The position numbers and the translations under genes were made by a program. From Candidatus Omnitrophota bacterium (lineage in GTDB: Bacteria > Omnitrophota > Gorgyraeia > Gygaellales > Profunditerraquicolaceae): a DNA stretch of 15,619 nt. The notes under the pieces were generated by a model. It was not told the DNA's origin. It saw nothing but the letters and a program-made list of their open reading frames with translations, and did not search any database. Position 1 is the first letter of the stretch. Each line of letters begins with the position of its first letter. The stretch spans positions 1 to 15,619 of the forward strand of contig JAUYEC010000109.1 in NCBI GenBank assembly GCA_030691585.1. Direction: 5' to 3'. Of this stretch, positions 10,621 through 15,619 are shown one piece after another.

Positions 10621-11472
10621 CTAAAATACGATTGTCTTGTTGCCGCAGCGGATAATACGATGGTCAAGATAGGCGGCTATGCCCAGGGCCAGGGCCTTTT
10701 TCTCAAGATGCCTGCCCTTGCTTATAAGGGCCGCAAGATCATCTTTGTGTGAAATAGCCTCCACTTCCTGGGTGATGATCGGGCCGTCGTCCAGCCGGTC
10801 GTTGACAAAGTGCGCGGTGGCGCCGATGACCTTAACACCCTGTTCAAGTGCTTTTTGATAAGGATCAGCACCTTTAAAAGAAGGCAGGAAACCGTGGTGG
10901 ATATTGATTATATCCTTGCCGTATTCCCGCAGGAAATTTTCCGAGAGCACCAGCATATAACGGGCAAGAACGAGAAAATCGGTTTTATTTAAAACAAGCG
11001 CCATGAGCTCCTCTTCCTTGCGGTTATTTTTATCGGCGCGGATATAATGAAAAGGGATATTGTATTGGGAAACCAATTTAAAATGCCTGTCGTCATTGCT
11101 GATGACAAAAGGGATATCGCAGCGCAGTTCTTTGATACTCCAAAGATAAAGTATCTCCTGCAGGCAATGCCCGGGCCCGGAAACCAATATCCCCATCCGG
11201 GGAATATCTTGCTTACGGCGTATGAGCCAGGCGGCATCAAATTTTTTGGCGATCGGGGCAAACCGGGCCGCCAGATCCGCCTCCGTGATCTCGGCCTCCG
11301 GCAAAAATTCCACGCGCATGAAAAAATGCCCGCCCTCGGGATCAGTAGAATATTGATCGGCGGTAATGATATTGCAGCCAAGGTCGCGAATCACACCCGC
11401 TATTTCGGCGACAATTCCCATGCGGTCAACGCATTGGAACAACAGGACATAAATCCGGTCAATTTTTTCCAT
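10621..11472 (-). CDS. purU: Formyltetrahydrofolate deformylase (ACT domain plus formyltransferase domain)
   Basis: N-terminal ACT domain (VDRMGIVAEIAGVIRDLGCNI). INIHHGFLPSFKGADPYQKALEQGVKVIGATAHFV is the formyltransferase core. The GTG 11490 start in the ORF track would overlap corA. ATG 11472 has AAAGAG upstream and is preferred. Confidence 0.85.
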   Translation of the reverse strand: MEKIDRIYVLLFQCVDRMGIVAEIAGVIRDLGCNIITADQYSTDPEGGHFFMRVEFLPEAEITEADLAARFAPIAKKFDAAWLIRRKQDIPRMGILVSGPGHCLQEILYLWSIKELRCDIPFVISNDDRHFKLVSQYNIPFHYIRADKNNRKEEELMALVLNKTDFLVLARYMLVLSENFLREYGKDIINIHHGFLPSFKGADPYQKALEQGVKVIGATAHFVNDRLDDGPIITQEVEAISHKDDLAALISKGRHLEKKALALGIAAYLDHRIIRCGNKTIVF

Positions 11473-11480
11473 AGGGCTCT

Positions 11481-12455
11481 TTATAACCACTTTCTGCGTT
11501 TAAAATAGGCGAGCATCGTGATAGTTATGATACCCATAATAAGGATGATGGCCGGGTAACCGAGCTTGCTCTCCAGCTCGGGCATATGCTTGAAATTCAT
11601 GCCGTAGATACTGGCAATGAGTGTCAGGGGCATCATGATGGTGGCGATAACGGTAAGGGTCTTCATGATCTCGTTGAGCCTGTTGGAGACTATGGAGACA
11701 TAGGCCTCCATAGCGCCGGTCACGATATCACGCGAGGTGCCGACGATATCATTGAGGCGCACGAGGTTGTCGTAGATATTCCTGAAATAGACGGTATTAG
11801 AGGACGAGATGCAGGGAATGTCACCGCGAGTGATGATGCTCATCACGTCGGCCTGCGGGCCGATGGTACGGCGCAGATACATAATCTCGTTTTTCAGGCT
11901 GTATATTTTTTTGAGGGTGCCGCTGGTGGGGTCGCGGAACAGTTCGTCGCTCATATTATCCACCATATCGTCGAATTCGTTGATCACCGGGAAATAACTG
12001 TCCACCAGCGAATCCAACAGCGAATACATCAAGAAATCGGCGCCGTTCTTTATGATCGGCGATTGTTTACGCACCCGCTCTTTGTTGGTGGCAAAGGCGG
12101 TGGTTGTGGAATTATGCGCCGTGATCAAAAAATTCCTGCCAAGGCAGAAATCCCGCTCGTCTGTCTTGACCCTTGTGCGCTCTTTTTCCAGGTATTCCAT
12201 GGAAAACATCACCAGAAAAATATAGTCCTTGAAATTTTCGACCTTCGGCCTGGCATTGGCCATGATCAGATCCTCAACGGTCAAGGGATGCAGGGCAAAG
12301 ATCTCGGTAAGGATGTCAATTTCTTCGTCCTCAATGGACATCAGGTCGATCCAAAGCGCGCTCTGCGGGTCAGCCAGCGCCTGGCGCATCTCGCCGGAGT
12401 TGAGTTTATCGAAATTGAATCCTCTTTGAGGATGATACAGGAATGTCTCGTACAT
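11481..12455 (-). CDS. corA: CorA-family Mg2+/Co2+ transporter
   Basis: Two C-terminal TM helices carry the YGMNF (GMN) signature. The N-terminal soluble domain is acidic. Confidence 0.9.
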   Translation of the reverse strand: MYETFLYHPQRGFNFDKLNSGEMRQALADPQSALWIDLMSIEDEEIDILTEIFALHPLTVEDLIMANARPKVENFKDYIFLVMFSMEYLEKERTRVKTDERDFCLGRNFLITAHNSTTTAFATNKERVRKQSPIIKNGADFLMYSLLDSLVDSYFPVINEFDDMVDNMSDELFRDPTSGTLKKIYSLKNEIMYLRRTIGPQADVMSIITRGDIPCISSSNTVYFRNIYDNLVRLNDIVGTSRDIVTGAMEAYVSIVSNRLNEIMKTLTVIATIMMPLTLIASIYGMNFKHMPELESKLGYPAIILIMGIITITMLAYFKRRKWL

Positions 12456-13766: not shown

Positions 13767-13794
13767 TTGACGGTTCGTTTGTTTCGTGTACAAT
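13767..13794 (+). promoter_or_regulatory. Promoter TTGACG-16-TACAAT about 12 nt upstream of tRNA exon 1
   Basis: -35 is at 13767-13772 and -10 at 13789-13794. tRNA position 1 is at 13806. Confidence 0.5.
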
Positions 13795-13840
13795 AATAGC
13801 ACAATTCCCCCTTAGCTCAGTCGGTAGAGCGAGTGGCTGT

Positions 13841-14368
13841 GCGAGGCCGCCTTAGGCGGCCGAGCAAAAGGAACGGAGGTGGCATTGGCAAAGCACGATA
13901 CACGACGTTACGCCGATCGTCGCCAGTATTTAATTGCCGCAGTAAAAGCCAGACGTAAAAAAGTCAGGCAAATGGCAGTTGGATATAAAGGCGGGCGATG
14001 TCAAGTGTGCGGCTATGACCGTTGTATCGAAGCTTTAGAGTTTCATCACACCGATTCTTCCGGAAAAGATTTTAGCATATCCGAGAAAGGTTATACTCGG
14101 AGTTGGGCTAAAGTCAAAGAAGAATTGGATAAGTGTATGTTACTTTGCGCCAACTGTCATCGAGAACTTCATGCTCAAGCGCAGCTCCCGCGGGAAACCG
14201 CGGCTGAAACTGCAGGAGAATTGCTGGAAGCCCTAGCGTAACTACGCGGGTAATCAGCAGCCGAGCCCCGGAAGTCCGGGGAAGGTTCAGAGACTATGCA
14301 CCTGCTGCCTAATGCGCAAGCAATGGCAAAGATATAGTCCGCTTCCGAAAGTAATTTCGGGTTAAGCG
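13841..14368 (+). mobile_element. Group I self-splicing intron (528 nt) in the anticodon loop, carrying an HNH endonuclease ORF
   Basis: Canonical R element GTTCAGAGACTA (14285-14296) and S element AAGATATAGTCC (14329-14340) form P7. P9 hairpin CCGAAA-GTAA-TTTCGG (14345-14360) has a GNRA loop. The intron ends in G (14368). Exon 1 ends in U (13840) and can pair GGCUGU with GCGGCC (13856-13861) with a U-G wobble at the splice site. A CGCGG-GAAA-CCGCG hairpin lies at 14189-14202. Confidence 0.7.
13879..14241 (+). CDS. Intron-encoded HNH endonuclease (putative homing endonuclease)
   Basis: CQVCGYDRC...LEFHHTD...LLCANCHRELH is an HNH motif with flanking CxxC zinc ligands. The N-terminal region is basic. 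Start is uncertain: GTG 13879 or ATG 13971. The 3' end overlaps intron core structure. Confidence 0.7.
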   Translation: MALAKHDTRRYADRRQYLIAAVKARRKKVRQMAVGYKGGRCQVCGYDRCIEALEFHHTDSSGKDFSISEKGYTRSWAKVKEELDKCMLLCANCHRELHAQAQLPRETAAETAGELLEALA

Positions 14369-15619
14369 TAACCACCAGGTCCGAGGTTCGAGTCCTCGAG
14401 GGGGAGCCAATTCTCTTTAAGCCCTATTCCCGATACAAGGGAATAGGGCTTTTTGGTTGAAAATAAAAGGTTTCTGTCTTTTAAGACGAGGTTCGAGCCG
14501 AGAATTTTCAAAAAATCGCGCTTGGCGCTGGGATTTCCTTGCCAAGCGACAGAACCAGCCCTGTTACAAGTAGTTACGAACTCCTTCGCCGGTTCGAGCC
14601 ACCCGCCGCCTGCTTTCTCTATCTCGCCAAGCCGCTCCTGTAAATCTTTCTTTTCGTTGAGTAATTTTGCCTTCTTATGCTGATATTCTTCCTGAGAAAT
14701 TTCCTTAGCAATATAAAGATCAATTAACCTTTCTATCTTCTCATCAAACTCTTTTAATTTGTCGGCGGCTTGGCGAGCCGCAAAGGAAGAGGCTGTGCCC
14801 TCATCCTTAGCTAATGCTTCAAAGCGATTAATTATTTTGTCTTTAATGTCATTATCTATAAACACATTTAAGATTGCATTGTTTATCTGCTCAAGCAAAG
14901 CCTCTTCCCTAAGGTACTTTTGCGTGCAGGCGGTAAGTTTCTTGGTACAGCGATAATAAACGTGACCCTTCTTAAGTTCTGCCGTAATGCTAGCTCCACA
15001 CTCACCGCATTTCATCAACCCGGTAAAAGTAAACTTATCAGCCGTCTTTTTAATAACTCGTGTTTTCTGTGCGATTACCGCCTGCACGCTGTCGTAAAGT
15101 TTCTTAGTGATAAGCGGCGGGTGGCTCGCCTCAAACCTTTCGTCCTTATAGACCATCACCCCATAATAGAAGGGGTTGCGTAGCATTTTGGCCAAACAAC
15201 TCTTAAAGATAGGCTTGCCCGCCTTCGCCGTAAGCCCCCACCTATGTACTTCCCTTAATAACTCCTCAAGCGAATAATTACCTGTAGCGTATAACTCAAA
15301 CGCCTTATAAACAAAACGTGCTTTTTCCGGGTTAGGTTTTACTGTATGGCTTACGGCGTCGTTGTAGTAACCAAGCGGCGCAGTGCCCGGCCATTCGCCA
15401 CGGCGCAGTTTCTCTCTTAAGCCACGCTTAACATTTTCAGCGAGATTATCTATATAATATTTGCTCTGTCCGAACGCAATAGAAAGCATAAATTTTCCCT
15501 GCGCCGTGGCGTCAAAGCGGTAAGTGGGGAAACGTAGGTCAACGATCTTGCCGATATCAACCAAGTAGATAATCTTTCCGCCGTCAATGGAGTTGCGGGC
15601 AAGCCTATCCGGATGCCAG
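14362..15619 (-). CDS. Large serine recombinase (integrase). The N-terminal catalytic domain runs beyond the window end. The C-terminus is encoded antisense to tRNA exon 2 and its terminator.
   Basis: The frame is open to 15619 (..DRLARNSIDGGKIIYLVDIGK.., a resolvase-domain remnant). It has a recombinase domain (PLGYYNDAV...NPFYYGVMVYK), a zinc ribbon (CGECGASITAELKKGHVYYRC) and a coiled-coil. The tail ..ENWLPLEDSNLGPGGYA is the antisense translation of the tRNA T-arm and acceptor. The stop (reverse complement of 14362-14364) falls inside the intron's 3' end. Confidence 0.85.
   Translation of the reverse strand, partial: WHPDRLARNSIDGGKIIYLVDIGKIVDLRFPTYRFDATAQGKFMLSIAFGQSKYYIDNLAENVKRGLREKLRRGEWPGTAPLGYYNDAVSHTVKPNPEKARFVYKAFELYATGNYSLEELLREVHRWGLTAKAGKPIFKSCLAKMLRNPFYYGVMVYKDERFEASHPPLITKKLYDSVQAVIAQKTRVIKKTADKFTFTGLMKCGECGASITAELKKGHVYYRCTKKLTACTQKYLREEALLEQINNAILNVFIDNDIKDKIINRFEALAKDEGTASSFAARQAADKLKEFDEKIERLIDLYIAKEISQEEYQHKKAKLLNEKKDLQERLGEIEKAGGGWLEPAKEFVTTCNRAGSVAWQGNPSAKRDFLKILGSNLVLKDRNLLFSTKKPYSLVSGIGLKENWLPLEDSNLGPGGYA
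14419..14455 (+). terminator. Rho-independent terminator downstream of the tRNA
   Basis: AAGCCCTATTCCC-GATACAA-GGGAATAGGGCTT is a 13-bp stem, followed by TTTT. Confidence 0.6.

Follow-up and report, generated by a model that had tools for sequence, protein, structure and literature searches.

A probable mobile group I intron with an HNH endonuclease gene in a split tRNA-Asn(GUU) gene of Candidatus Omnitrophota

Which tRNA is encoded by a gene that is interrupted within its anticodon loop, and what kind of element interrupts it? This question is raised by a complete contig of an uncultured Candidatus Omnitrophota bacterium (JAUYEC010000109.1 of assembly GCA_030691585.1; the whole stretch of 15,619 nucleotides (nt) is called the window here), which contains the two parts of a tRNA gene with a long intervening sequence. 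Based on the comparisons described below, the locus is very probably a tRNA-Asn(GUU) gene in which a mobile group I intron, inserted between U35 and U36, carries an HNH homing-endonuclease gene in the loop of its first paired region (P1). The anatomy of the locus, the covariation in its RNA and the presence/absence polymorphism of the intron were all observed in this analysis, and the splicing and homing activities proposed below are read from these features.

A plain ARAGORN run over the whole window reported no tRNA, and the intron mode of the program was required. In this mode a single gene was recognized at 13806-14409 with a 528-nt intron, and these limits are identical to those of the original prediction, in which the two halves of a 76-nt tRNA had been placed 528 nt apart. 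The gene was called Thr(cgt) i(34,528), namely, a tRNA-Thr(CGT) interrupted between positions 33 and 34. When the exons are joined in silico at 13840/14369, ARAGORN returns a 76-nt tRNA-Asn(GTT) with the anticodon at position 34, and this spliced product has a canonical cloverleaf in which the anticodon GUU is preceded by U33 and followed by a purine (position 37). Two junctions have thus to be compared: one between positions 35 and 36 of a tRNA-Asn, with the ligated exons reading ...GGCUGUUAACC..., and one between positions 33 and 34 of a tRNA-Thr(CGU), with splice sites after U13838 and after G14366 and the ligated exons reading ...GGCUCGUAACC... In the window, a U at position -1 and a G at the end of the intron are present with both junctions, so that its sequence alone leaves the choice undecided.

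The choice is made by the related loci. When the protein of the intron open reading frame (ORF) was searched against a set with one genome for each species, 31 loci were obtained, or 32 sequences including the window, mostly in Omnitrophota and also in Nitrospirota, Aerophobetes, Blastocatellia, Aminicenantes and metagenome-assembled genomes (MAGs) labelled Planctomycetia. All 31 of these loci, each encoding an ORF relative, have an identically split tRNA with the junction GGCTGT/...G/TAACC. The 5' exon end GGCTGT is invariant in all 32, as is the G directly before TAACC, and with the junction at 35/36 the anticodon is GUU in every locus. In contrast, the Thr junction would require a terminal G two positions upstream of this one, where at least 12 of the 31 loci have T or C (L004, L010, L013, L015-L019 and L029 are examples), and closely related loci would then alternate between the anticodons UGU and CGU. 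U1-A72 and G73 are present in the tRNA body, as in the bacterial tRNA-Asn of Table S3 of PMC13011429.

Alleles without the intron, a survey of which had been suggested in the original prediction, were also found. An exact search of metagenome contigs with the 28-nt spliced junction gave 85 stretches. In at least nine metagenome loci the uninterrupted gene is identical to the spliced product at 76 of 76 positions, about 60 further loci differ from it by one to five mismatches, and all of the uninterrupted genes checked with ARAGORN were tRNA-Asn(gtt). A match of the tRNA body to an intron-less tRNA-Asn is the criterion by which Nakagawa et al. fixed the junction of homologous introns (PMC13011429). 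For those introns, a mis-call by a shift of 2 nt has been documented with both ARAGORN and tFind, and sequencing of the spliced RNA placed the junction at 35/36 (PMC13011429). So, although the intron mode of ARAGORN calls a tRNA-Thr and that junction, too, has a U at -1 and a terminal G in the window, a tRNA-Thr(CGU) interrupted at 33/34, which had been named from the start as the alternative, is extremely improbable, and the identity originally proposed, tRNA-Asn(GUU) interrupted at 35/36, stands.

The intervening sequence is a group I intron, as had been claimed. It matches Rfam RF00028 (Intron_gpI) at 14160-14361 of the + strand with 69.7 bits (gathering score 50; E = 3e-16) over the full model (positions 1-253), and this is the sole Rfam feature across the whole window. 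The R and S elements, the P9 capped by a GNRA loop, the terminal G14368 and the U13840 were all found in the sequence as the original prediction had described them (Table 1). To place these features in a wider context, 36 homologous cores, including three Patescibacteria introns and one Nitrospirota intron from Tables S3 and S5 of PMC13011429, were aligned (alignment A1). This alignment has 45 invariant columns, and the guide sequence, P2, the joining segment J2/3, P4-P7 and P9 are common to all of its members, including the Patescibacteria intron of GCA_016700035.1, for which splicing has been proven. RNAalifold on A1 recovers P2, P4, P5, P6/P6a, P7 and P9, with compensatory changes in 22 of the 31 predicted pairs; P7 is paired in all 36 sequences, and pairs of P4 exchange AU with CG and GC with UA in 14-15 of the 36. 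Covariation of P3 was recognized by inspection of A1, where the two strands occur as GCAGG/CCUGC, GCGGG/CCCGC, GCGAG/CUCGC, GCGUG/CACGC and UCAGG/CCUGA. Additional segments of 40-70 nt are inserted in some relatives, either after J3/4 and ahead of P4 or in an extension of P6; their sites are L004 1801-2070 and L031 1540-1815 (A1 columns 47-114), and L012 and L032 (A1 columns 201-250).

The partner of the 5' exon in P1 differs from the one first proposed. The original prediction had paired the exon with GCGGCC at 13855-13860, which is the 3' arm of a local hairpin and is unconserved in L005, L008, L014 and other loci; it was rejected as the guide, in favor of the conserved GCAGCU at 14181-14186. 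The motif GCAGCY lies directly 5' of P2 in all 42 introns compared (32 from this study and 10 published). It pairs with the exon sequence GGCUGU as G30·U, G31-C, C32-G, U33-A, G34-C and U35·G, so that the 5' splice site, which U13840 precedes, is marked by the wobble U13840·G14181. These six pairs cannot covary because the exon is invariant. P1 is extended by C14180 and G14179, which pair with the intron positions +1 and +2, respectively. Position +1 and the base 5' of the guide are paired in 35 of the 42 introns, as GC, AT, CG, GT or TG, and none of 2000 shuffles reached this number; pairing of +2 is found in 26 of the 42 and was matched or exceeded in five of 2000 shuffles. About 340 nt separate the 5' splice site from the guide downstream of it; P1 closes over this span, and the ORF is therefore located within the P1 loop.

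The local hairpin at the 5' end of the intron (window 13841-13865) is itself conserved. It has a minimum free energy of -17.8 kcal/mol (z = -4.1), and the same architecture with different stem sequences was seen in five relatives. The pattern GCGAG-stem-CGAGC, starting at intron position +1, recurs across the loci, and the stem varies with compensatory changes in the equivalents in L002-L031, next to a tandem G-A/A-G internal loop. In L032, an intron without an endonuclease gene, the hairpin is continuous with P1. In the endonuclease-bearing introns, the closing GC of the hairpin competes with the GC adjacent to the guide for intron positions +1 and +2, and this competition could be a candidate switch between translation and splicing.

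The original prediction had also assigned a 120-amino-acid HNH protein to the intron. The ORF that was found mechanically has this length, and its HNH nature is supported by three PHROG families of HNH endonucleases (E = 4e-31, 1e-24 and 7e-21). The start codon, however, is likely to be another one: GGAGG followed by TTGGCAAAG recurs in most relatives, and the TTG at 13885 is 5 nt from GGAGG, so that the likely product has 118 amino acids. The residues C41, C44, H56, H57, C86, C90, N92, C93, H94 and H98, which form a metal-binding and catalytic pattern of the type CxxC...HH...CxxCH...H, are invariant in 22 homologs. The protein is under strong purifying selection; dN/dS relative to its relatives is 0.03-0.08 for residues 7-99, outside the overlap with the ribozyme, a value that is approximate because dS is near saturation. 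The family of the ORF comprises 1976 protein clusters at E <= 0.001, with identities of up to 92%. At its 3' end the gene enters the ribozyme: codons ~100-120 (QLPRETAAETAGELLEALA) overlap the guide sequence, P2, P3, P4 and P5, with the stop codon TAA (14239-14241) in the P5 loop, and the conservation of the C-terminal tail of the endonuclease reflects RNA constraints. A profile search of the PDB gave a weak match, only to McrA (6ghc; E = 0.002), over CxxCHRExH.

Table 1. Features of the split tRNA-Asn gene and its intron in the window, in order of position.
Feature	Position	Strand	Description and basis
Sigma-70-like promoter TTGACG-16 nt-TACAAT	13767..13794	+	Consensus scan, 10/12 matches; 11 nt before tRNA position 1; putative function
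tRNA-Asn 5' exon (positions 1-35)	13806..13840, 35 nt	+	Acceptor, D arm, 5' anticodon stem, C32 U33 G34 U35
Group I intron, 528 nt	13841..14368	+	Rfam RF00028; ARAGORN intron mode; junction fixed by 31 loci and intron-less alleles
Conserved 5' hairpin, P1-extension module	13841..13865	+	GC / GA-GA internal loop / 7-bp stem / UUA loop
Shine-Dalgarno-like GGAGG	13875..13879	+	Read from sequence; abuts GTG 13879, 5 nt upstream of TTG 13885
HNH homing-endonuclease gene	13885..14241	+	Likely TTG start 13885 (118 aa); mechanical ORF GTG 13879-14241 (120 aa); PHROG
Internal guide sequence (P1 3' strand)	14179..14186	+	GCAGCU 14181-14186, plus G14179 C14180; conservation, covariation
P2 hairpin CCGCGG-GAAA-CCGCGG	14188..14203	+	RNAalifold on A1; 6/6 pairs with compensatory changes
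P3 5' strand GCAGG	14212..14216	+	Partner 14301-14305; A1 variants, Rfam alignment
P4 enclosing P5-P5a	14224..14257	+	P4 14224-14227 / 14254-14257; P5-P5a 14231-14238 / 14245-14250; RNAalifold
P6 and P6a	14260..14286	+	P6 14260-14262 / 14284-14286; P6a CCCCGG-AAGU-CCGGGG (14266-14281); RNAalifold, compensatory changes
R element GTTCAGAGACTA (GUUCAGAGACUA)	14285..14296	+	Holds P7 5' strand; invariant block in 36 sequences; Rfam alignment
P3 3' strand CCUGC	14301..14305	+	A1 variants, Rfam alignment
P8 UGCC...GGCA, inner UGC-GCAA-GCA hairpin	14306..14328	+	Read from sequence; set between P3' and P7' by Rfam alignment
S element AAGATATAGTCC (AAGAUAUAGUCC)	14329..14340	+	Holds P7 3' strand; Rfam alignment, A1, RNAalifold
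P9 CCGAAA-GUAA-UUUCGG, GNRA loop	14345..14360	+	RNAalifold; 6 pairs, all compensated
Terminal (omega) G	14368	+	32/32 loci; also published introns of the same family
tRNA-Asn 3' exon (positions 36-76)	14369..14409, 41 nt	+	U36 A37 A38, 3' anticodon stem, variable loop, T arm, acceptor, G73, encoded CCA
Intrinsic-terminator-like hairpin, 13 pairs, then T run	14419..14451	+	Consensus match; putative function

Is the intron mobile? Its presence varies among loci of the same genetic context. In L005 (Omnitrophota), the intron is followed by the same downstream serine-recombinase cassette as in the window, at 85% identity. In L040, L037, L047, L058 and L101, an uninterrupted tRNA-Asn gene is followed by that cassette at 79-89% identity (86-89% in L040 and L037). 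The upstream genes of the window were common to none of the related loci in the synteny comparison, and scans for repeats around the locus gave nothing relevant. The introns also form a decay series, in which full endonuclease genes for 107-154 amino acids are the commonest state; in the 389-nt intron of L031 the endonuclease is reduced to a fragment, and the introns of L032 (255 nt) and L029 (261 nt) have none. The hosts belong to at least five phyla (Patescibacteria, Omnitrophota, Nitrospirota, Acidobacteriota and Aerophobetes), those of Patescibacteria being taken from published data. In a quick neighbor-joining tree of 92 columns, which is low-resolution evidence, the intron-encoded proteins, including three from Patescibacteria, form one near-exclusive group (best bipartition Jaccard index 0.94; 0.9 or higher in 23 of 30 bootstraps), with the Nitrospirota members in two places.

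The large serine recombinase gene (Recombinase, Zn_ribbon_recom) that adjoins the tRNA gene is located at 14362-15619 on the - strand and runs off the end of the contig. The tRNA 3' exon, read on the opposite strand, supplies the last ~15 codons of this gene. In L091 the recombinase is full-length (515 amino acids; 10721-12455), and a 130-bp inverted copy of the window sequence 14411-14540 is found beyond the gene. This recombinase unit resembles an integrative or invertible element making use of the 3' end of tRNA-Asn. Part of the contig is also present in the Logan assembly of SRR13727536.

From these features a course of splicing and homing can be proposed. In the precursor, G30-U35 of the exon and intron positions +1 and +2 would pair with GC-GCAGCU (14179-14186) to form P1, with the wobble U13840·G14181. 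The core formed by P3-P9 would bind a free guanosine, which would attack after U13840; the terminal G14368 would enter the same site, and ligation of the exons would release the 76-nt tRNA-Asn. The most likely targets of the HNH protein are intron-less tRNA-Asn genes, which it would cut near GGCTGT^TAACC, and repair of the break would copy the intron into them. Because the tail of the endonuclease is read from the guide, P2, P3, P4 and P5, an RNA molecule that is being translated should be unable to fold as a ribozyme, and vice versa. For this copy of the intron, we infer splicing, the activity of the endonuclease and its target from sequence.

Several results weigh against a functional, homing intron in a tRNA-Asn gene. 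The window is a contig of 15.6 kb, and a second intact tRNA-Asn gene may lie elsewhere in the genome. The subgroup L020 and L022-L027 is without the +1:-1 extension of P1, and on inspection the 3' exon UAACC had no convincing P10 partner in the bases preceding the guide. As for the protein, the family assignment that stands with PHROG is not repeated in the other databases: Pfam HNH (PF01844) gave 18.7 bits, under its cut-off of 21.4, and the NCBIfam scan of the ORF protein gave no family. The AlphaFold2 model of the HNH protein is too poor for confirmation of the fold (mean predicted local distance difference test score 54, predicted template-modeling score 0.32).

The first of these points would fit a dead relic, in which splicing has been lost and the split tRNA gene is a pseudogene, with an intact tRNA-Asn gene outside the contig. 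However, the core helices and conserved elements are all intact and match the full length of the Rfam model, the exons are the same as in uninterrupted alleles that look functional, and the ORF is intact and under purifying selection. A promoter-like site and a terminator-like hairpin flank the split gene, which therefore resembles a self-contained transcription unit. In complete genomes, intron-bearing and intron-less copies of one anticodon rarely coexist (PMC13011429), and a relic is very unlikely. The sub-threshold Pfam score bears on another possibility, in which the intron splices and the HNH protein has ceased to act in homing and is now a maturase, or has some other role, or is conserved only through its overlap with the ribozyme; some 20 C-terminal residues are indeed constrained by RNA structure and not by protein function. 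This too is improbable, if less so than a relic: the low dN/dS was obtained outside the overlap, the metal-binding and catalytic residues are invariant, and the syntenic presence/absence polymorphism and the distribution over at least five phyla agree with mobility that is still ongoing. Moreover, the family includes introns devoid of an endonuclease gene, one of which undergoes protein-free splicing in vitro, so that a maturase is not required. A splicing intron with a homing HNH endonuclease thus remains the preferred reading.

How does this intron compare with known systems? The original prediction regarded group I introns as known chiefly in bacterial tRNA genes for Leu, fMet, Ile and Arg, and an ORF-bearing intron in tRNA-Asn as unusual. 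This background is out of date. In Williams 2020 (bioRxiv 10.1101/2020.01.27.920355), the known intron-split bacterial tRNA types were raised from four to 21, and a class Asn.4Ug, at times mis-called Thr.2Ug, is attributed to this tFind study as cited in PMC13011429. Nakagawa et al. (bioRxiv 2025.07.03.662931; mSystems 2026, PMC13011429) described 15 Patescibacteria tRNA-Asn introns at 35/36, four of them with HNH (PF01844) genes, and further ORF-less tRNA-Asn introns at 35/36 in Nitrospirota and Bipolaricaulota. For the homologous intron of GCA_016700035.1, precise self-splicing in vitro at 35/36 was demonstrated, with a control in which the omega G was changed to C (PMC13011429). In their set of complete genomes, endonuclease-bearing introns at 35/36 occur only in Patescibacteria, and more were expected from draft genomes (PMC13011429).

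The intron of the window has the same host gene, insertion site, exon context GGCUGU/UAACC, U at -1 and terminal G as the Asn.4Ug and Nakagawa introns. With the latter it also shares the guide GCAGCY, the homologous P2, P4-P7 and P9, and the mis-call by ARAGORN as a tRNA-Thr interrupted at 33/34. In the four published Patescibacteria cases, too, the HNH gene lies between the 5' splice site and GCAGCY-P2, running into P2 in the three that were translated, and these three proteins (from Table S3) are 51-64% identical to the window protein over ~100 residues. The shared site, guide, core and HNH gene place the intron of the window in the described family. An apparent degenerate HNH remnant (...YCADCHR...) is seen in the 347-nt tRNA-Asn intron of the Nitrospirota genome GCA_958295805.1 (Table S5 of PMC13011429); at this length the intron fell below the 500-bp filter of that study and was therefore left out of its endonuclease-bearing set.

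This situation is different from that of the published members in two respects. The host of the window intron is an Omnitrophota bacterium, and its core is compact: the Patescibacteria and Nitrospirota members have a block of ~35 nt between P7 and P3', whereas in the window AGAGACUA is followed by 4 nt (UGCA) and then by P3' CCUGC. The block is also present in L010, L013, L015, L016, L028 and L029, and is absent from most Omnitrophota members. In PMC13011429, 25 of 28 introns at 35/36 carry the label IA, and one Nitrospirota tRNA-Asn intron is IA1. Because the P7.1/P7.2 helices between P7 and P3' that define IA are absent from it, the window intron was not filed under IA; judged by structure, its core resembles the compact IC3 cores. 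One homologous family thus contains two core types (A1 columns 273-370; window 14297-14328), a block-bearing one in Patescibacteria, Nitrospirota, Aerophobetes and Acidobacteriota and a block-less one mostly in Omnitrophota, and so the IA and IC3-like labels may not track ancestry.

The IC3 tRNA introns themselves (cyanobacterial tRNA-Leu(UAA) and Azoarcus tRNA-Ile(CAU)) likewise interrupt the anticodon loop and have a small core with near-identical R and S elements and no extra helix between P7 and P3. However, they are ORF-less and are inserted at 34/35 or 36/37 instead of 35/36, and the core of the window intron is visibly homologous to the Asn family. Self-splicing introns in an anticodon loop with their own homing-endonuclease genes are also known from cyanobacterial tRNA-fMet(CAU), with a PD-(D/E)XK enzyme (PF11645), and from tRNA-Arg(CCU), with a LAGLIDADG enzyme (PMC13011429). 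These differ from the window intron in endonuclease family, tRNA and insertion position.

Relatives of the HNH protein also exist outside introns. Proteins of 50-67% identity are encoded in at least 555 viral contigs, and the neighborhoods of the best 80 of these loci (L118-L197) were inspected. Phage tRNA arrays harbor 77 of the 80, with a mean of 6.2 tRNAs per ~3.2 kb, and an uninterrupted tRNA-Asn(GTT) is the immediate neighbor in 58 of the 80 (33 of 47 after removal of sequences more than 95% identical). A group I intron was found in two (L118 and L132) of the 20 best viral loci by an Rfam scan, and a stricter motif scan of the 80 viral loci gave L118 only. Relatives are present in 433 records of cultured phages; in Felix O1 (L198) the gene lies inside a tRNA array. 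Like the Felix O1 HNH enzymes ORF44/45, relatives of the window protein at 47-67% identity are encoded within phage tRNA arrays. In this they are comparable to T4 SegB, a free-standing GIY-YIG enzyme of a phage tRNA region for which homing has been demonstrated (PMC2330249). Unlike the window gene, such phage genes are free-standing, and the nearest viral relatives lie beside, not within, uninterrupted tRNA-Asn genes. In the quick tree, the HNH protein of L121 (IMGVR_UViG_3300050821_003527) clusters with the intron-encoded proteins, and in its surroundings ARAGORN found no tRNA and Rfam no group I intron.

The position of the nearest relatives beside tRNA-Asn genes fits a course in which an intron captured, at the enzyme's own cleavage site, an endonuclease that had been free-standing next to its target. 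It suggests a phage origin of the endonuclease family, for which tRNA-Asn may have been a long-standing target. A fuller history can be sketched tentatively, and we consider it possible rather than probable: a free-standing phage gene targeting tRNA-Asn would have been captured once into the P1 loop and would have spread horizontally over at least five phyla, after which the ribozyme of Omnitrophota would have lost the P7.1-type block and come to look like a compact IC3-type core. If this loss took place, the boundary between the IA and IC subgroups would be blurred.

In short, the known picture of group I intron biology is unchanged, and what is new here is modest: the Omnitrophota host, the compact core without the block after P7, and the free-standing endonuclease relatives that adjoin tRNA-Asn in phage arrays. 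The endonucleases of phage tRNA arrays beside tRNA-Asn offer a testable origin for the mobile intron. The family of introns with endonucleases is extended to draft genomes of Omnitrophota, Nitrospirota, Acidobacteriota and Aerophobetes. Standard tRNA finders miss the gene or mis-call it as tRNA-Thr, and MAGs of Omnitrophota and others would therefore seem to lack tRNA-Asn, so that their completeness scores would be distorted, an artefact of the same kind as that already described for Patescibacteria.

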